64,000 nucleotides of DNA from Escherichia coli (GCF_002854065.1 NZ_CP024147.1); one strand, 5' to 3'; numbered from the stretch's first letter, positions 1,908 to 63,854 are shown. Numbers and translations: made by a program. Notes: generated from the letters alone by a model not told the origin.

Positions 1908-2945
1908 ATGTTTTCCGCATTGCGCCACCGTACCGCTGCCCTGGCGCTCGGCGTATGCTTTATTCTCCCCGTACACGCCTCGTCACCTAAACCTGGCGAT
2001 TTTGCTAATACCCAGGCACGACATATTGCTACTTTCTTTCCGGGACGCATGACCGGAACTCCTGCAGAAATGTTATCTGCCGATTATATTCGCCAACAGT
2101 TTCAGCAAATGGGTTATCGCAGTGATATTCGGACATTTAATAGTCGGTATATTTATACCGCCCGCGATAATCGCAAGAGCTGGCATAACGTGACGGGAAG
2201 TACGGTGATTGCCGCTCATGAAGGCAAAGCGCCGCAGCAGATCATCATTATGGCGCATCTGGATACTTACGCCCCGCTGAGCGATGCTGACGCCGATGCC
2301 AATCTCGGCGGGCTGACGTTACAAGGAATGGATGATAACGCCGCAGGTTTAGGTGTCATGCTGGAATTGGCAGAACGCCTGAAAAATACGCCTACCGAGT
2401 ATGGTATTCGATTTGTGGCGACCAGCGGCGAAGAGGAAGGGAAATTAGGCGCTGAGAATTTACTCAAGCGGATGAGTGACACCGAAAAGAAAAATACGCT
2501 GCTGGTGATTAATCTCGATAACTTAATTGTTGGCGATAAATTGTATTTCAACAGCGGTGTAAAAACCCCTGAAGCAGTAAGGAAATTAACGCGCGACAGG
2601 GCGCTGGCAATTGCGCGTAGTCATGGAATTGCCGCAACGACCAATCCGGGTTTGAATAAAAATTATCCGAAAGGCACTGGGTGTTGTAATGACGCAGAAA
2701 TATTCGACAAAGCGGGCATTGCTGTACTTTCGGTGGAAGCGACTAACTGGAATCTTGGGAATAAGGATGGTTATCAGCAACGCGCAAAAACAGCCGCATT
2801 CCCTGCGGGAAATAGCTGGCATGACGTAAGACTGGATAATCAACAGCATATTGATAAGGCACTTCCAGGAAGAATAGAACGTCGCTGCCGTGACGTTATG
2901 CGGATAATGCTACCACTGGTGAAGGAGCTGGCGAAGGCGTCTTGA
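1908..2945 (+). CDS. iap: Alkaline phosphatase isozyme conversion aminopeptidase (Iap), 345 aa
   Basis: ORF translation MFSALRHRTAALALGVCFILPVHASS...; signal peptide; M28-type peptidase. Confidence 0.92.
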   Translation: MFSALRHRTAALALGVCFILPVHASSPKPGDFANTQARHIATFFPGRMTGTPAEMLSADYIRQQFQQMGYRSDIRTFNSRYIYTARDNRKSWHNVTGSTVIAAHEGKAPQQIIIMAHLDTYAPLSDADADANLGGLTLQGMDDNAAGLGVMLELAERLKNTPTEYGIRFVATSGEEEGKLGAENLLKRMSDTEKKNTLLVINLDNLIVGDKLYFNSGVKTPEAVRKLTRDRALAIARSHGIAATTNPGLNKNYPKGTGCCNDAEIFDKAGIAVLSVEATNWNLGNKDGYQQRAKTAAFPAGNSWHDVRLDNQQHIDKALPGRIERRCRDVMRIMLPLVKELAKAS

Positions 2946-3070
2946 TGGGTTTGAAATGATGACTCCCGTGCCTGCAGGAAATCAATGCCACCTGAAACAG
3001 AGAATAAAAAAGGGTGCAGGAGGCCAAACCATCACAATTCAATACGCGGGGTTTTACCCCCGCGTGGTGG

Positions 3071-3223
3071 CTACTTCTTCGATTCGTAAGCGAGAACTGC
3101 CTTAAACTCCATACCACGCTCTCTGATACTCAACTCACATAACGAGTCGCCTACCATGAGCGTGAATCCCAGTACTGTACAACACAGTACTATGATTGCC
3201 ACAAGGGCATATTTTGTTAGCAT
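3071..3223 (-). CDS. hokX: Hok/Gef-family membrane toxin (type I toxin-antitoxin), 50 aa
   Basis: [50 protein letters not shown]; hydrophobic helix plus SLCE...AYES motif typical of Hok; GGAGG Shine-Dalgarno (rc of 3229-3233) 6 nt upstream of ATG 3221-3223. Confidence 0.75.
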
Positions 3224-3330
3224 GTCTTGCCTCCCTGCAAAGAAGAGACTAACATCCGAATTGCTACGTTCGAACGCGAGCCTCAGGTTGATAGAAATAT
3301 CGCCTGGGGCTTTTGTCCATCTGGAACCTC
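3224..3330 (+). ncRNA. sokX: Putative Sok-type antisense RNA opposite the hok mRNA leader (coordinates approximate)
   Basis: Expected from hok/sok locus architecture; exact ends not determinable from sequence alone. Confidence 0.2.
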
Positions 3331-3430
3331 GCGAATGCTTAACGCCAGACAGCCTCAAGCACCCGACGCCATTCTATACCTGATAATTCTTCCAGCGGCG
3401 TTCACGTTTAAAATCAGGAATGCTGCTCGC

Positions 3431-3469
3431 AAAATAAAAACGCCCCCATCATTTCTGACAGAGGCGTTT
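3431..3469 (-). terminator. Intrinsic terminator downstream of cysH (end of cysJIH operon)
   Basis: On minus strand: stem AAACGCC...GGCGUUU followed by U-rich run (A-run 3431-3439 on plus strand). Confidence 0.6.
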
Positions 3470-3486
3470 AATTTATCCGGCAATAT

Positions 3487-4221
3487 TTACCCTTCGTGTA
3501 ACCCACATTCCCTTTTTAAGCCAAAGAAACGCGTTTCTTCTTCCGCCATGCCGGGTTCCCATTTACGGGTTGTATGGGTATCGCCCACCGATAAATATCC
3601 TTCGTCCCATAATGGGTGATATTTCAGGCCATGTTTTTGCAGGTACTGATAAATAGTTCGGTTATCCCAGTCGATAATCGGCAGCACTTTAAATACGCCA
3701 CGCTGAATTGCCAGCACCGGTAAATTGGCGCGGCTGCCGGATTGTTCACGGCGCAGGCCAGCAAACCAGGTTTGCGCATTCAGTTCTTTTAGCGCCCGGT
3801 TCATCGGTTCGACTTTGTTGATGTCATTGTACTTTTCAATGCCTTCAACGCCCTGTTCCCACAGTTTTCCGTAGCGTGCTTCCTGCCAGGCTGCGCTTTC
3901 GGTAGCACGGTACACTTTCAGGTTGAGCTTGAGTTTGTCCGTTAACTCGTCAATAAAGCGGTAGGTTTCCGGGAACAAGTAACCGGTATCGGTGAGGATC
4001 ACTGGAATATCCGGGCGAATCTGATTCACCAGATGCAGGCTCACCGCCGCCTGAATGCCGAAGCTGGAAGAAAGCACATATTCACCGGGCAGATTATCCA
4101 GCGCCCAGGCTACGCGGCCTTCAGCGTCCAGTTTTTCCAGTTGGGCGTTAGTTTCCGCCAGCGCCAGAATGCGATCTACCTTCGGCAGTTCGTTCAGGGC
4201 GTTTAGATCGAGTTTGGACAT
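3487..4221 (-). CDS. cysH: Phosphoadenosine phosphosulfate (PAPS) reductase CysH, 244 aa
   Basis: Translation from [14 protein letters not shown]...; C-terminal ECGLH motif; ORF-track upstream extension judged non-coding. Confidence 0.93.
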
Positions 4222-15394: not shown

Positions 15395-16180
15395 TTAGCG
15401 CACTAAATAACCGCCATCAACTACTAATAAATGCCCGTTGACATAATTCGATGCCGGACTTGCGAGGAATACGGCTGCGCCCATTAAATCCTGAGTATCG
15501 CCCCAACGGTTTGCCGGAATATGATCAAGAACGCGCTGATTGGTTTCTGGATTACTACGTGTCGCCAGCGTAATATCTGTTGCATAATAGCCAGGGGCGA
15601 TACCATTTACCTGAATATTATATTGACCTAGTTCATCACAATAAGCTTTGGTGAACCCGGCAAGAGCATGTTTAGTGGCAGAATATGCAGGTGACCATTG
15701 TCCACCTAAGTAAGAGAATAATGAACAGATATTAATTATTTTACCGCTTTTCTGCGGGATCATAATTTTTGCCGCTTCATAGCTTAACTCGAATGCGGCG
15801 GTCAGGTTCACATCAATCATCGGGTCCCAGTCGGCACGACCGAAGTCCAGCACCTTATTCAGCTTACAAATACCGGCATTGTTAACCAGAATATCGACGG
15901 TACCGAAACGTTCGCAACAGGCGGCGATTATCTTCTGCGGCGCGCCTTCTGCGGTGATATCCACCTGCATGAAGTCCACCTCAACACCCTGTTTTTCAAT
16001 CATTTCCTTTGTTTCGCCGTTATCTTTGACGAAGCTAGGAATAAAGACATTTGCGCCTGCTTTGGCCAACGCCATGGCAAATGCCTGGCCTAAACCGCTA
16101 TTCCCGCCGGTAACAATTGCGGTTTTACCTTTCAGGGAGAAAAAATCCATTGAGAACGCATTGAGAGATTCGATTGACAT
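15395..16180 (-). CDS. ygcW: Short-chain dehydrogenase/reductase, 261 aa
   Basis: TGGNSGLGQAFA Rossmann motif; start at MSIESL with GGAG Shine-Dalgarno. Confidence 0.88.
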   Translation of the reverse strand: MSIESLNAFSMDFFSLKGKTAIVTGGNSGLGQAFAMALAKAGANVFIPSFVKDNGETKEMIEKQGVEVDFMQVDITAEGAPQKIIAACCERFGTVDILVNNAGICKLNKVLDFGRADWDPMIDVNLTAAFELSYEAAKIMIPQKSGKIINICSLFSYLGGQWSPAYSATKHALAGFTKAYCDELGQYNIQVNGIAPGYYATDITLATRSNPETNQRVLDHIPANRWGDTQDLMGAAVFLASPASNYVNGHLLVVDGGYLVR

Positions 16181-20520: not shown

Positions 20521-20692
20521 ATGAAAAAGGATTTAAACATGCTCAGGATATTCATCGTAATTATATTTATTTTCAATTTATCAGGCTGTGGATATAACGA
20601 TATTCAAACCTATGATGAGCAGGTTAACGCCTCCTGGTCTGAGGTATTAAATCAATATCAACGTCGCGCCGATCTTATTCCTAATCTTGTCG
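20521..20692 (+). pseudogene. lemA: LemA-family lipoprotein gene truncated after about 57 codons by IS1
   Basis: MKKDLNMLRIFIVIIFIFNLSGCGYNDIQTYDEQVNASWSEVLNQYQRRADLIPNLV then IS1 end; lipobox LSGC. Confidence 0.7.
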
Positions 20693-20747
20693 GGTGATGC
20701 TGCCAACTTACTGATTTAGTGTATGATGGTGTTTTTGAGGTGCTCCA

Positions 20748-21023
20748 GTGGCTTCTGTTTCTATCAGCTGTCCCTCCTGTTCAGCTACTGACGGGGTGGT
20801 GCGTAACGGCAAAAGCACTGCCGGACATCAGCGCTATCTCTGCTCTCACTGCCGTAAAACATGGCAACTGCAGTTCACTTACACCGCTTCTCAACCCGGT
20901 ACGCACCAGAAAATCATTGATATGGCCATGAATGGCGTTGGATGCCGGGCAACCGCCCGCATTATGGGCGTTGGCCTCAACACGATTTTCCGCCATTTAA
21001 AAAACTCAGGCCGCAGTCGGTAA
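20748..21023 (+). CDS. insA: IS1 InsA, 91 aa
   Basis: [43 protein letters not shown]... Confidence 0.95.
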
Positions 21024-21445
21024 CCTCGCGCATACAGCCGGGCAGTGACGTCATCGTCTGCGCGGAAATGGACGAACAGTGGGGATACGTCGGGGCTAAA
21101 TCGCGCCAGCGCTGGCTGTTTTACGCGTATGACAGGCTCCGGAAGACGGTTGTTGCGCACGTATTCGGTGAACGCACTATGGCGACGCTGGGGCGTCTTA
21201 TGAGCCTGCTGTCACCCTTTGACGTGGTGATATGGATGACGGATGGCTGGCCGCTGTATGAATCCCGCCTGAAGGGAAAGCTGCACGTAATCAGCAAGCG
21301 ATATACGCAGCGAATTGAGCGGCATAACCTGAATCTGAGGCAGCACCTGGCACGGCTGGGACGGAAGTCGCTGTCGTTCTCAAAATCGGTGGAGCTGCAT
21401 GACAAAGTCATCGGGCATTATCTGAACATAAAACACTATCAATAA
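20942..21445 (+). CDS. insB: IS1 InsB frame (expressed as InsAB' by -1 frameshift at the TTTAAAAAAC motif)
   Basis: 167-aa InsB translation; slippery A-run near 21000. Confidence 0.9.
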
Positions 21446-21462
21446 GTTGGAGTCATTACCTG

Positions 21463-26055: not shown

Positions 26056-26847
26056 TTAGAGATCAATTTCCTGCCGTTTTACCTGTTGCCAGACTTCTTC
26101 CATTGTTTCGAGGTCAACACCTGTCATTTCCAGTCCACGCGCGGCAACAATACGCTCCACTTCGCGAAAACGACGCTCGAATTTTTCGTTCGCTTTTTGC
26201 AATGCGATTTCCGCTTTTGTCCCTAAATGACGAGCCAGATTGACCGTGGCAAACAGCAGGTCCCCCATTTCCTCCTCCAGTTTAGCCTGGTCGACAACAG
26301 CCTGCCGCGCTTCGTACATCACCTCGTCGATCTCTTCGTAGACTTTATCGACTACCGGACCAAGCGTCGTCCAATCGAAGCCAACGTTGGCGCAACGTTT
26401 CTGGATTTTTTGCGCACGCATTAAAGCCGGTAAACTACGAGGAATATCGTCCAGCGCCGAATGCTGCGCTTTCTGCGCGCGCTCTCCGGTTTTGATTTGC
26501 TCCCAACGGGCAAGCACTTCACTACTGTTTTCGGCAGAACTGTCAGCAAAAACATGCGGATGGCGACGCTCTAATTTATCGCTAATCGCAGCGCAAATAT
26601 CATTAAAGTCAAAGCGCCCTTCTTCCTGAGCCATTTGTGCGTAAAACACCACCTGGAACAGCAGATCGCCGAGTTCACCGCGCAGATCGTCAAAATCTTC
26701 ACGGGCGATGGCGTCCAGCACTTCGTAGGTTTCTTCAAGGGTGTAAGGCGCAATGGTGGCAAATGTCTGCTCTTTATCCCACGGGCAGCCGTTTTCCGGG
26801 TCGCGCAGGCGCTGCATAATAGTGAGCAAACGGTCGATTTGATTCAT
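26056..26847 (-). CDS. mazG: Nucleoside triphosphate pyrophosphohydrolase MazG, 263 aa
   Basis: ORF translation; tandem MazG-type NTP-PPase domains. Confidence 0.93.
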   Translation of the reverse strand: MNQIDRLLTIMQRLRDPENGCPWDKEQTFATIAPYTLEETYEVLDAIAREDFDDLRGELGDLLFQVVFYAQMAQEEGRFDFNDICAAISDKLERRHPHVFADSSAENSSEVLARWEQIKTGERAQKAQHSALDDIPRSLPALMRAQKIQKRCANVGFDWTTLGPVVDKVYEEIDEVMYEARQAVVDQAKLEEEMGDLLFATVNLARHLGTKAEIALQKANEKFERRFREVERIVAARGLEMTGVDLETMEEVWQQVKRQEIDL

Positions 26848-26917
26848 TAGAATGTCCTGAAAATTGCAGGTCCGTCAGGTGGAAACCTGTGACCAGAATA
26901 GAAGTGAGTTAGTAACA

Positions 26918-27253
26918 CTACCCAATCAGTACGTTAATTTTGGCTTTAATGAGTTGTAATTCCTCTGGGGCAACTGTTCCTTTCTTCGTTGCTCCTCTTG
27001 CCCGCCAGGCGATACTTTTTACCTGATCAGCTAACGCTACGCCATCACGTTCCTGACCGGATAAAACAACTTCGAACGGATATCCTTTTGATTGCGTTGT
27101 ACAAGGAACACACAGACACATACCTGTTTTGTTGTTGTACATGAACGGACTCAGGACAACAGCCGGACGATGTCCGGCTTGCTCGCTACCTTTTGTCGGG
27201 TCAAAATCAACCCAAATCAGATCGCCCATATCGGGTACGTATCGGCTTACCAT
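26918..27253 (-). CDS. mazF: MazF endoribonuclease toxin, 111 aa
   Basis: [36 protein letters not shown]... Confidence 0.95.
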   Translation of the reverse strand: MVSRYVPDMGDLIWVDFDPTKGSEQAGHRPAVVLSPFMYNNKTGMCLCVPCTTQSKGYPFEVVLSGQERDGVALADQVKSIAWRARGATKKGTVAPEELQLIKAKINVLIG

Positions 27254-27501
27254 TACCAGACTTCCTTATCTTTCGGCTCTCCCCAGTCGATATTCTCGTG
27301 GAGGTTTTCCGGCGTGATGTCGTTGACCAGTTCAGCAAGCGTAAATACGGGCTCTTTACGCACTGGCTCAATAATTAATTTGCCATCCACCAGGTCAATC
27401 TTCACTTCATCATCAATATTCAGATTGAGCGCCTGCATTAACGTAGCCGGGATCCGCACCGCCGGTGAATTTCCCCAACGCTTTACGCTACTGTGGATCA
27501 T
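27253..27501 (-). CDS. mazE: MazE antitoxin, 82 aa
   Basis: [33 protein letters not shown]...; stop overlaps mazF start. Confidence 0.95.
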
Positions 27502-27519
27502 AACCCTTTCCTCAAACCG

Positions 27520-27570
27520 CTATCATATGTAGATACAGTATATATCAATCTACATTGTAGATACGAGCAA
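27520..27570 (-). promoter_or_regulatory. mazEF promoter/operator region with repeated TGTAGATAC-type palindromic motifs
   Basis: ...ATGTAGATACAGTATATATCAATCTACATTGTAGATAC... directly upstream of mazE. Confidence 0.5.
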
Positions 27571-27578
27571 ATTTCTGC

Positions 27579-29813
27579 CTAACTCCCGTGCAACCGACGC
27601 GCGTCGATAACATCCGGCACCTGGTTGAGTTTACCCAGCACGCGACCCAGCACCTGCAGGTTGTAAATCTCAATGGTCATGTCGATGGTCGCCAGTTGCT
27701 GTTTGGTGTCGCTACGGCTGGCAACGCCAAGTACGTTCACCTTCTCGTTGGCGAGAATGGTCGTGATATCACGTAACAACCCACTACGATCATTAGCCAC
27801 CACGCGGACCACCAGCGAATATCCGGCGGAGTAGCTCTCGCCCCATACCGCGTCAACAATGCGTTCTGGCGCATGGGAGCGCAGTTCCGCCAGTTGTTCG
27901 CAATCGGCGCGGTGTACTGAAATACCGCGTCCCTGGGTAATGAAGCCGACAATCTCATCTCCAGGAATCGGCTGGCAGCAGCGCGCGATGTGGTGCATCA
28001 GGTTACCAACACCTTCAACCACCACACGACCGTTATCTTTACTGCGGTTTTGCGGCGTGTAGCTTTTTTGCTGAAGCTGTTTCAGCGCGGCGGCGTCCTG
28101 CTCTTCGGCACTCGGCTTATTAAATTGCGATTGCAGGAAGTTCACCATCTGATTGAGACGGATATCCCCGCCACCAATCGCCGCCAGCAACTCGTCGACA
28201 TCATTGAAGTTGTAACGCGGCAGCAGATGTTTTTCTGCTTCTTTCAGGCTGATCCCCAGATGTTCCAGCTCGTCGTCAAGGATTTGCCGCCCAGCCAGAA
28301 TGTTTTTGTCACGGTCCTGTTTACGGAACCAGGCGTGAATTTTCGAACGCCCACGGCTGGTTGTGACGTAACCGAGGTTTGGGTTTAACCAGTCACGGCT
28401 GGGGTTCGGCTGTTTCTGGGTGATAATTTCAATCTGGTCGCCCATCTGCAGCTGGTAGGTGAACGGCACAATGCGCCCGCCAATTTTTGCCCCGATGCAG
28501 CGGTGTCCGACATCACTGTGGATGTGGTAAGCGAAGTCCAGCGGCGTTGATCCCGCAGGCAAATCAACGACATCACCTTTCGGCGTAAAGACATACACCC
28601 GGTCGTCAAACACCTGACTACGTACTTCGTCGAGCATTTCGCCGGAATCAGCCATCTCTTCCTGCCACGCAATCAGTTTACGCAGCCAGGCAATCCGGTC
28701 TTCATGTCCCGAACGTGCGCCGCCAGCTGCCGCGCCCTCTTTATATTTCCAGTGCGCAGCAACACCCAACTCTGCATCTTCATGCATCTGTTTGGTGCGG
28801 ATTTGGATCTCAACGGTTTTTCCACCCGGCCCCAGAACCACGGTATGAATAGACTGATAACCGTTTGGTTTCGGGTTAGCGACGTAATCGTCAAACTCAT
28901 CCGGCAGGTGGCGATAGTGAGTGTGCACTATCCCCAGTGCGGCATAACAATCCTGTAAACGCTCGGCGACAATACGTACCGCACGCACATCAAACAGCTC
29001 ATCGAAGGCGAGGTTCTTTTTCTGCATTTTGCGCCAGATGCTGTAGATGTGTTTCGGACGACCATACACTTCAGCTTTAACGCCTTCAGCTTTCATCTCA
29101 GCGCGCAGATGGCCGACAAACTCTTCGATATAGTGTTCGCGGTCGAGACGGCGTTCATGCAACAGTTTTGCGATGCGTTTGTATTCGGTCGGGTGGAGAT
29201 AACGGAAGCAGTAATCTTCCAGCTCCCATTTCAGTTGCCCAATCCCAAGACGGTTTGCCAACGGCGCGTAGATATTGGTGCACTCTTTTGCCGCCAGTAC
29301 GCGTTCATCTTCCGGCGCATCTTTTACTTCACGCAGATGAGCAATACGCTCCGCCAGTTTGATGACCACGCAGCGAAAATCATCGACCATCGCCAATAAC
29401 ATCCGGCGAACGTTATCGACCTGTTCGGAGGAAACAGAATCAGTGTGCGTCGCTTTCAGCTGGCGGATCGCCGCCATATCACGCACGCCGTGAATAAGGT
29501 TAACGACCGACTTACCGACGCTCTCACGCAGCACATCTTCGCTGACTACGTTGGCATCCGCCAGAGGGAAAAGCAGCGCCGCCCGCAGCGTGTCAATGTC
29601 CATACTTAATGTCGAGAGGATCTCCACCATCTCAACACCACGCCACAATAACAGACTGGCATCCGGATGCCCCTGCGTCTGTTGCAGACAATACGCCCAG
29701 GTTTCGGCTAAGCACTCACACGACTTCTGGCTGGTAATACCCAGACTTGCGATCCATTTTTCCGGATCAAATTCACCAGCCTTATTGATATGTGCACTTC
29801 TTACCGCAACCAT
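27579..29813 (-). CDS. relA: GTP pyrophosphokinase ((p)ppGpp synthetase I) RelA, 744 aa
   Basis: ORF translation; RelA/SpoT synthetase, TGS and ACT regions. Confidence 0.96.
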   Translation of the reverse strand: MVAVRSAHINKAGEFDPEKWIASLGITSQKSCECLAETWAYCLQQTQGHPDASLLLWRGVEMVEILSTLSMDIDTLRAALLFPLADANVVSEDVLRESVGKSVVNLIHGVRDMAAIRQLKATHTDSVSSEQVDNVRRMLLAMVDDFRCVVIKLAERIAHLREVKDAPEDERVLAAKECTNIYAPLANRLGIGQLKWELEDYCFRYLHPTEYKRIAKLLHERRLDREHYIEEFVGHLRAEMKAEGVKAEVYGRPKHIYSIWRKMQKKNLAFDELFDVRAVRIVAERLQDCYAALGIVHTHYRHLPDEFDDYVANPKPNGYQSIHTVVLGPGGKTVEIQIRTKQMHEDAELGVAAHWKYKEGAAAGGARSGHEDRIAWLRKLIAWQEEMADSGEMLDEVRSQVFDDRVYVFTPKGDVVDLPAGSTPLDFAYHIHSDVGHRCIGAKIGGRIVPFTYQLQMGDQIEIITQKQPNPSRDWLNPNLGYVTTSRGRSKIHAWFRKQDRDKNILAGRQILDDELEHLGISLKEAEKHLLPRYNFNDVDELLAAIGGGDIRLNQMVNFLQSQFNKPSAEEQDAAALKQLQQKSYTPQNRSKDNGRVVVEGVGNLMHHIARCCQPIPGDEIVGFITQGRGISVHRADCEQLAELRSHAPERIVDAVWGESYSAGYSLVVRVVANDRSGLLRDITTILANEKVNVLGVASRSDTKQQLATIDMTIEIYNLQVLGRVLGKLNQVPDVIDARRLHGS

Positions 29814-63340: not shown

Positions 63341-63548
63341 TGTTCTCTTCTTCAGGTTAAAAAATAAGGCGCAACGAAGATAACAAACCACCGCGTTTAA
63401 TGAAATGAGCAGCCTCTCCCTGACGCAAATTTTGCACAAAAAATAGGCTTTAGTGATTTGTTTTTGTTCAAAATCATGCCAGATCCGTGATCGGGGTAAA
63501 AAAAAGGTTGCATGAAAACGCGAGCGGAGTATAGTGCGCATCCACGGA

Positions 63549-63625
<77 letters not shown>

Positions 63626-63658
63626 ATTAAAATTTGATGAAGTAAAGCAGTACGGTGA

Positions 63659-63735
<77 letters not shown>

Positions 63736-63769
63736 ATCAAAATTTGATGAAGTAAAAGCAGTACGGTGA

Positions 63770-63846
<77 letters not shown>

Positions 63847-63854
63847 ATTATTGA

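Follow-up and report, generated by a model that had tools for sequence, protein, structure and literature searches.

Palindromes upstream of mazE in an Escherichia coli relA-mazEF-mazG region match the published MazE operator

The DNA between relA and mazG in the 64,000-nucleotide stretch of Escherichia coli sequence analyzed here (the window) is almost certainly, judging from gene order, protein families, and operator sequence, mazEF, the canonical type II toxin-antitoxin module of the E. coli chromosome, together with its MazE operator, and nothing that we found contradicts this identification. The mazEF module was the first chromosomal toxin-antitoxin module to be described and is among the best studied. 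Because the palindromes in front of mazE are base for base the published MazE/MazEF operator and the module itself is ordinary and intact, the region contains nothing new, and an earlier sequence-only reading was right to call it well described, both module and operator having already been published.

The interval 26056-29813, which begins exactly at the mazG stop and ends exactly where relA starts, contains four open reading frames, all on the minus strand and free of frameshifts and internal stops (Table 1). mazE lies directly 5' of mazF, antitoxin before toxin, and at the TAATG of their junction the last A of the mazE stop TAA is also the first base of the mazF ATG, a 1-base overlap. This bears out the intact relA-mazE-mazF-mazG arrangement proposed in the sequence-only reading, including its overlap between an 82-residue MazE and a 111-residue MazF, and all four products match their families above the cut-offs. 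A second toxin-antitoxin-type locus, which that reading had also reported for the window, is indeed present as a Hok/Gef-type open reading frame at 3071-3223 on the minus strand. The relA-mazE intergenic region is 77 nt long, and ACA sites number 2 in the mazE coding sequence and 9 in that of mazF, in agreement with published counts (PMC5888573). Type I-E CRISPR repeats were absent from the 64-kb window.

Assignment of the four proteins is straightforward. RelA scores 1678 bits against its NCBIfam equivalog NF008124 (cut-off 728) vs 472 bits against the SpoT equivalog NF008303, which is under that family's cut-off of 947, and its Pfam domains appear in full-length order: HD_4 (the inactive HD), RelA_SpoT (the synthetase), TGS, RelA_AH_RIS, and ACT_4. 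MazE matches NCBIfam equivalog NF007312 (196 bits, cut-off 113) and Pfam PF04014 (52.9 bits, cut-off 24.7) and is identical to the chain in PDB 1mvf_D; its N-terminal DNA-binding domain is of the AbrB/MazE/SpoVT type, and its C-terminal tail, which binds MazF, is disordered. MazF matches NF007386 (equivalog, 227 bits, cut-off 120) and PF02452, the MazF/PemK fold family (84.8 bits, cut-off 23.1), and is identical to PDB 3nfc_A over 111 of 111 residues. MazG matches NF007113 (equivalog, 369 bits, cut-off 208) and TIGR00444 (418 bits), with Pfam PF03819 found in 2 stretches, that is, as tandem MazG domains. The module is 100% identical in E. coli CUWW06, where RefSeq names the genes relA, mazE, mazF, and mazG; collinearity with CUWW06 holds across the module, although over the whole window it fails upstream of ~21.4 kb through IS1-associated differences.

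Table 1. Positions in the window of the genes, regulatory elements, and cassette discussed in the text
Feature	Sequence	Position	Strand	Remarks
relA, GTP diphosphokinase ((p)ppGpp synthetase I)		27579-29813	-	744 aa, stop TAG
mazE, antitoxin and autorepressor		27253-27501	-	82 aa
mazF, ACA-specific endoribonuclease toxin		26918-27253	-	111 aa
mazG, nucleoside triphosphate pyrophosphohydrolase		26056-26847	-	263 aa
Fis-like 15-mer	GGCAGAAATTTGCTC	27565-27579	-	candidate; loose Fis pattern; directly after relA stop, upstream of palindromes
mazEF operator 'cab' (alternating palindrome)	CTCGTATCTACAATGTAGATTGATATATACTGTATCTACATATGATAGCG	27518-27567	-	50/50 match to published oligonucleotide
Operator site c	GTATCTACAATGTAGATTG	27546-27564	-	site from PMC4333400
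Operator site a	TTGATATATACTGT	27535-27548	-	PMC4333400; ATATAT palindrome
Operator site b	ATATACTGTATCTACATAT	27525-27543	-	PMC4333400; second GTATCTACA copy
mazE ribosome-binding region	GAGGAAAGGG	27504-27513	-	read from sequence; ends 2 nt 5' of ATG
aMEF antisense RNA		27213-27612	+	coordinates transferred from K-12 annotation
aMEF promoter region, inside mazF		27176-27207	+	promoter oligonucleotides of PMC8749433 Data Set S1
mazEF cassette, insertion/deletion unit		26882-27578	-	alignment with mazEF-less ST131 and GMF054

The operator is supported by the comparison with characterized mazEF promoters that the sequence-only reading had suggested: the DNA in front of mazE agrees at all 50 bases with the 'cab' oligonucleotide used for ITC with MazE by Zorzini et al. 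2015 (PMC4333400), where 0 such matches are expected by chance. This region has been described as the 'alternating palindrome' operator of the P2 and P3 promoters, at which MazE is a repressor and MazE-MazF a stronger one (PMC4803016, PMC3879964), and ITC and EMSA data accompany a model in which MazE dimers occupy three sites within it (PMC4333400). Site c includes a perfect palindrome of 7+1+7 form, ATCTACA-A-TGTAGAT, along with a -10-like hexamer (TACAAT, 27559-27554), and site a, which is the DNA of the NMR/SAXS MazE-DNA model 2MRU (PMC4333400), contains another (TATACT, 27542-27537). Site b, reported to overlap the strong P2 promoter (PMC3879964), forms an 8-nt inverted repeat with the 3' half of site c. 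Of the 4407 E. coli genomes with this operator, ~4000 have it unchanged, and it is essentially invariant among the ~4400 cassette-bearing genomes.

Repeated and inverted TGTAGATAC-type motifs directly upstream of mazE, from which the operator was originally proposed, are found at 27527-27564 within the 38-mer ATGTAGATACAGTATATATCAATCTACATTGTAGATAC, the strand quoted at the time being the plus strand, antisense to mazE, 26-63 nt 5' of the mazE ATG. The operator assignment stands, but these repeats are not the whole of it, since the operator comprises the three sites c, a, and b, and site a is centered on an ATATAT between the repeats. Two exact copies of TGTAGATAC (27528-27536 and 27556-27564) are accompanied by an 8-nt perfect inverted repeat (27527-27534 with 27548-27555) and a 7-nt perfect inverted repeat (27548-27554 with 27556-27562). 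The two copies are the only exact ones in the 64-kb window, and with up to 1 mismatch allowed the motif occurs there 6 times against 6.75 expected, which is no enrichment. Among 5000 mononucleotide-shuffled versions of the 77-nt intergenic region, 45 had a direct repeat of 9 nt or longer, 160 had an inverted repeat of 8 nt or longer, and a single one had both. These three results (sole exact copies, no window-wide enrichment, and both kinds of repeat in 1 of 5000 shuffles) mark the palindromic feature as local, real, and non-random. The term 'alternating palindrome' for the mazEF operator reportedly comes from Marianovsky et al. 2001.

A Fis activator site has been placed upstream of the alternating palindrome (PMC4803016), and the Fis-like 15-mer in Table 1 is our candidate for it. 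Within 27495-27700 it alone matches a loosely defined Fis pattern, G-N13-C around an AT-rich center, and the strict pattern G-N2-Y-A-N5-T-R-N2-C has no match within the same interval. The 15-mer overlaps a -35-like hexamer, and at 27576 this genome has an A where K-12 has a C, changing GGCCGAAATTTGCTC to GGCAGAAATTTGCTC and TAGGCC to TAGGCA. Both the Fis-site assignment and the exact positions of the -10 and -35 hexamers are what we infer from these patterns; a sigma-70 consensus scan of the 4-kb region returned 3 promoter-like sites vs 3.3 in shuffles, and the hexamers are to be read as candidates only.

The region also encodes the antisense RNA aMEF, annotated in K-12 as ncRNA ameF (b4844, 2911051-2911450, plus strand) and functionally characterized elsewhere (PMC8749433). 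As transferred here, it covers, in antisense orientation, the 5' end of mazF, the whole of mazE, the operator, and the 3' end of relA. Its promoter has a -35-like TTGCTC (27179-27184) and a -10-like CAAAAT (27202-27207), and comparison of the wild-type and mut5 oligonucleotides (PMC8749433 Data Set S1) maps the mut5 knock-down substitutions to 27176, 27179, 27200, 27203, and 27206. At 27176 the base is G here vs A in K-12, and the promoter as found here is the 'Shig_asmazEF' oligonucleotide of PMC8749433.

If the module behaves as its published counterpart does, mazE and mazF would be co-transcribed from P2 and from the weaker P3, 13 nt downstream, both located in the 77-nt spacer. MazE dimers would occupy sites c, a, and b of the ~50-bp operator through their N-terminal AbrB-type domain, with the alternating palindrome consisting of GTATCTACA, twice in direct and once in inverted orientation, plus the central ATATAT palindrome. 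Since the operator overlaps promoter elements, this binding would repress transcription. MazF bound to the disordered MazE C-terminus is expected to strengthen DNA binding near a 1:1 ratio and in large excess to abolish it, and the operon would therefore report the MazE:MazF ratio. The targets of MazF may include its own mRNA through the ACA sites counted above, a Fis site upstream would activate mazEF transcription, and aMEF, starting inside mazF, may modulate the levels of mazE and mazEF transcripts. For the present strain, in vivo autorepression by MazE and MazE-MazF and ACA-specific cleavage by MazF are expected from published work on the same proteins and DNA (PMC4333400, PMC4803016, PMC5888573), and the physiological role of chromosomal mazEF, whether programmed death, stasis, or selfish element, is disputed (PMC7167474).

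mazEF is variably present at this position, a presence/absence polymorphism that has already been described (PMC7167474). The relA-mazEF-mazG context occurs in ~4415 of 5425 complete E. coli genomes (~81%), and the remaining ~19%, ST131 among them, are without mazEF; the arrangement that the sequence-only reading called classical is therefore the one present here but not that of every E. coli. In alignment with ST131 and GMF054, which have 61 unrelated nucleotides in its place, the cassette amounts to ~697 bp and takes in the Fis-like site, the operator and promoters, mazE, mazF, and ~36 nt of 3' flank. On the left it is bounded by base 3 of the relA stop codon and on the right by a point ~34 nt 5' of the mazG ATG, the right border being uncertain by ~8 nt. 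Searches with the cassette gave no match among phages and only distant homologs (~65-69% identity) among plasmids, and they provide no evidence of a recent mobile source. One match to a 4.8-Mb 'plasmid' was set aside as a mislabeled record that is actually a chromosome.

Palindromes lying only 11-14 nt past the relA stop, with perfect inverted repeats of 7-8 nt, might be taken for an RNA or DNA hairpin whose main function is termination or attenuation of relA transcription, not for a protein operator, particularly as mazEF-less strains have a hairpin, GCTGGATA...TATCCAGC, at the equivalent position. We consider this highly improbable. The operator strand folds at -4.4 kcal/mol, no better than its shuffles (z = -0.57, with 55 of 200 at least as stable), which gives a hairpin or cruciform no thermodynamic support; the stems are AT-rich with no T-run after them, and a terminator scan returned nothing at the palindromes. 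Furthermore, relA and mazEF(G) have been described as one operon in which relA also has its own promoter (PMC7167474), and MazE binding to this very DNA as a duplex has been measured directly (PMC4333400). The same binding data weigh against the idea that the repeats are scars or recognition sites left by insertion of the cassette between relA and mazG and have no regulatory role, to which we give almost no credence. Although mazEF and its repeats do behave as one discrete indel of 697 bp, the repeats lie within it, beginning 14 nt inside the left border with no counterpart at the right border, and a distant plasmid homolog has, at the same position relative to its mazE, a repeated and inverted motif of a different sequence, as would be expected if operators co-evolve with their antitoxins.

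Another alternative accepts the MazE operator but supposes that the module is regulated differently in this lineage, the A at 27576 and the G at 27176 shifting the mazEF expression set-point or MazE:MazF ratio away from that of K-12. The former alters the Fis-like 15-mer and the -35-like hexamer at once, and the latter falls on one of the five positions mutated in the mut5 aMEF promoter. However, the published knock-down is that of the five substitutions and not of any single one (PMC8749433), the Fis-site and -35 assignments are themselves putative, and the operator sites and both the MazE and MazF proteins are unchanged relative to K-12. Both alleles are also common natural variants, the exact 89-nt spacer occurring in 405 of 4418 genomes and the aMEF promoter allele in 1261 of 4401, O157:H7 included. 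A shifted set-point is thus unlikely, but if it were real, regulatory results from K-12 could not be transferred unchanged to the many strains that share these alleles, O157:H7 again among them.

With the canonical mazEF reading, the region has little significance beyond correct annotation: it can be labeled with confidence, and its MazE, MazF, and operator are identical to those of the published biochemistry. There are only marginal points besides: where exactly the cassette begins and ends in comparison with mazEF-less E. coli, and the two common polymorphisms in the regulatory region.

The closest known system is the relA-mazE-mazF-mazG region of K-12 MG1655 (b2784-b2781; also chpAI/chpAK), which has the same order, strand, spacing, and 1-nt overlap, 100% identical RelA (b2784), MazE, and MazF, and an identical 50-bp cab operator. 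The two sequences are collinear at an offset of 25761 without gaps, with 67 SNPs over 4301 nt, nearly all of them synonymous. Of these, 44 are synonymous changes in relA that leave the protein unchanged, mazE has no nucleotide differences, mazF has three silent SNPs (one of them inside the aMEF promoter), and the sole difference in MazG is E121G; the relA-mazE spacer has only the SNP at 27576, outside the operator, and there is a small change just 5' of the mazG ATG. In mazEF-less E. coli, for example ST131 and UTI89 of phylogroup B2, by contrast, relA and mazG are bicistronic, with a homologous relA 3' end, homology over the last ~34 nt before mazG, and the same RelA protein accession, but 61 nt with a hairpin stand in place of the 697-bp cassette, and relA ends in TAA, not TAG. 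Among plasmid-borne MazEF/PemIK/Kis-Kid relatives, that of the Klebsiella IncF plasmid pDD02172-3 likewise has two genes, the first for an AbrB-type antitoxin and the second for a MazF toxin, and promoter-like hexamers upstream of them are surrounded by repeated and inverted motifs, as here; its MazF is 70% identical and its MazE only 40%, its operator motif is a different one (TGTTTAAACA / TGTTTACAC), and it has no relA or mazG context. The VapB2-operator complex of Rickettsia felis, from another organism and with a toxin of another family (VapC, PIN domain), shows an AbrB-type antitoxin on ATATATACT, whose central bases are those of site 'a' and are recognized through the same strand and hairpin (PMC4333400).

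Four intact open reading frames lie head to tail on the minus strand across 26056-29813, and they constitute the relA-mazE-mazF-mazG arrangement that the sequence-only reading had proposed with exactly these boundaries. All four proteins carry Pfam domains above the gathering scores and match their NCBIfam equivalogs far over the cut-offs (RelA 1678 bits, MazE 196, MazF 227 and MazG 369), and MazE and MazF are identical to PDB chains 1mvf_D and 3nfc_A, respectively. Neither mazE nor mazF contains a frameshift, and the overlap claimed for them is real, amounting to the single base with which mazE ends and mazF begins (TAATG). That all four genes are on the minus strand is a point absent from the sequence-only reading, and the operator sequence quoted there is the antisense strand. 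As is standard in E. coli, the module has pyrG and eno as neighbours at one end and rlmD and barA at the other.

Genes, published MazE sites and promoter-like hexamers of the module, in window coordinates
Feature	Position	Strand	Description
relA	27579-29813	-	744 aa, intact ORF
mazE	27253-27501	-	82 aa, intact ORF
mazF	26918-27253	-	111 aa, intact ORF
mazG	26056-26847	-	263 aa, intact ORF
site c	27564-27546	-	PMC4333400 site
site a	27548-27535	-	PMC4333400 site, ATATAT core
site b	27543-27525	-	PMC4333400 site
-10-like TACAAT	27559-27554		inside operator
-10-like TATACT	27542-27537		inside operator
-10-like TATGAT	27527-27522		inside operator

The repeated and inverted motifs reported upstream of mazE are also real. 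The quoted 38-mer occupies 27527-27564 of the plus strand, within which a repeat search found two exact copies of TGTAGATAC, 28 nt apart, as well as perfect inverted repeats of 8 nt (27527-27534/27548-27555) and 7 nt (27548-27554/27556-27562). Because both inverted repeats include the middle element, it can pair with the element on either side; this is precisely the geometry of the "alternating palindrome". Only 1 in 5000 shuffles of the 77-nt relA-mazE spacer combined a direct repeat of 9 nt or more with an inverted repeat of 8 nt or more. The 9-mer has no further exact copy in the 64-kb window, where near-matches occur at chance level.

That these motifs are known MazE/MazEF operator sites is borne out by an exact match of 27518-27567 (minus strand) to the first 50 bases of cab, the operator oligonucleotide that Zorzini et al. 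2015 (PMC4333400) examined with MazE by ITC, EMSA and NMR, along with sites c, a and b individually. In that work, the three sites bound MazE dimers independently with micromolar KD, MazF strengthened binding near equimolar ratios, and binding was lost at a high MazF:MazE ratio. As summarised in PMC4803016, Marianovsky et al. 2001 described two mazEF promoters, P2 and P3, 13 nt apart, with the alternating palindrome inside them and a Fis activator site further upstream; MazE represses, and MazE-MazF represses more strongly. Arm b of the operator overlaps P2 (PMC3879964). The operator is unchanged in about 4000 of the 4407 complete E. coli genomes that carry it. The operator strand folds no better than its shuffles, and a terminator or cruciform reading of the same DNA is without support.

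Three -10-like hexamers fall inside the operator, and a single Fis-like 15-mer, GGCAGAAATTTGCTC (27579-27565), lies in the stretch from the relA stop to the palindromes. These placements are inferred, and serve as leads rather than results. The promoter consensus scan as a whole gave matches at chance level.

The mazEF genes are absent from about 1010 of 5425 complete E. coli genomes, ST131 among them, in which relA and mazG are adjacent; this polymorphism has been described before (PMC7167474). In alignments, homology with mazEF-less genomes ends at the last base of the relA stop codon (TAA there, TAG in the window) and returns about 34 nt ahead of the mazG ATG, which delimits 26882-27578 as a unit of about 697 bp that carries mazE and mazF together with their operator and promoters, the Fis-like site and a short tail. 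In its place, mazEF-less genomes have a 61-nt stretch that contains a hairpin, GCTGGATA...TATCCAGC. In the ST131 relA-mazG spacer (L005:749-843), the hairpin of this filler reads GCTGGATATGGCGTCAGCCGTATCCAGC, at the cassette position, and may represent a putative relA terminator or a REP-like element. No phage match to the cassette was found, and its plasmid relatives are distant (65-69% nucleotide identity). The only near-identical "plasmid" match, H70 (NZ_OL790696.1), is a 4.8-Mb E. coli record, evidently a chromosome, and gives no evidence of plasmid carriage.

Elsewhere in the window, a Hok/Gef-type ORF of 50 aa (3071-3223, minus strand) lies between iap (1908-2945, plus strand) and cysH (ending at 3487) and is presumably the second toxin-antitoxin locus mentioned by the sequence-only reading. 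It scores under the NCBIfam cut-offs (HokA 53 versus 89 bits, Hok 39.5 versus 73), and RefSeq labels the identical locus of E. coli CUWW06 "Hok/Gef family protein". The iap-cysH gap (2946-3486) is only about 540 nt, and the whole 64-kb window is free of type I-E CRISPR repeats. In K-12 this interval holds the cas3-cas2 operon and the CRISPR-I array, a locus that thus appears to be absent from this strain. An IS1 copy is present at about 20675-21460; CUWW06, the closest genome, has an adjoining 1.9 kb (LemA/TPM-domain genes) and a second IS1, in an SDR oxidoreductase gene, both missing from the window (the latter at about 16027-16035). Three tandem tRNA-Met genes (63547-63850) adjoin amiC and mltA, as transferred from the annotation of CUWW06, to which 32001-64000 is 99.997% identical.

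CUWW06 and strain 100416 match the module at 100%, and most other complete genomes at 95-99%. K-12 MG1655 aligns without gaps over 4.3 kb with 67 SNPs; its RelA, MazE and MazF are identical to those of the window, as is its mazE nucleotide sequence, and MazG differs solely by E121G. Within relA, 29112-29367 (256 nt) departs from K-12 at 25 synonymous positions (about 10%, amino acids unchanged) against roughly 1% in the rest of the gene, and looks like a recombination patch. In the mazF-mazG spacer, five of the 25 nt at 26849-26873 differ from K-12, and just upstream of the mazG ATG, ACAATTCAATG of K-12 and ST131 is ACATTCTAATG in the window, equivalent to the loss of one nucleotide and the gain of another, with the SD-to-ATG distance unchanged. 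The ACA sites (2 in mazE, 9 in mazF) agree in number with PMC5888573.

Two common SNPs in regulatory DNA are the sole residual points. At 27576, three bases past the relA stop, the sense strand has C in K-12 and A in the window, inside the Fis-like 15-mer, changing a -35-like hexamer from TAGGCC to TAGGCA; the exact 89-nt spacer is common to 405 of 4418 genomes. The other concerns aMEF, the antisense RNA to mazEF (K-12 b4844), whose plus-strand position in the window is 27213-27612. When the mut5 and wild-type promoter oligonucleotides of PMC8749433 are compared, the five knock-down substitutions fall at 27176, 27179, 27200, 27203 and 27206; at the first of these (plus strand, inside mazF), G is the natural base of the window. 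Its aMEF promoter is identical to the "Shig_asmazEF" oligonucleotide of that study, and the G allele is found in 1261 of 4401 genomes, including O157:H7.

One of the distant plasmid relatives of the cassette, on the Klebsiella IncF plasmid pDD02172-3, has a MazF 70% but a MazE only 40% identical to the window's. Upstream of its mazE homologue (L007:400-470) is a different, operator-like motif (TGTTTAAACA/TGTTTACAC), repeated directly and inverted around a TTGACA hexamer, which fits a joint evolution of antitoxin and operator. The relA-mazEF-mazG module of the window, for which the earlier observation is confirmed and its interpretation supported, is the textbook, already-known system in a copy without anomaly.
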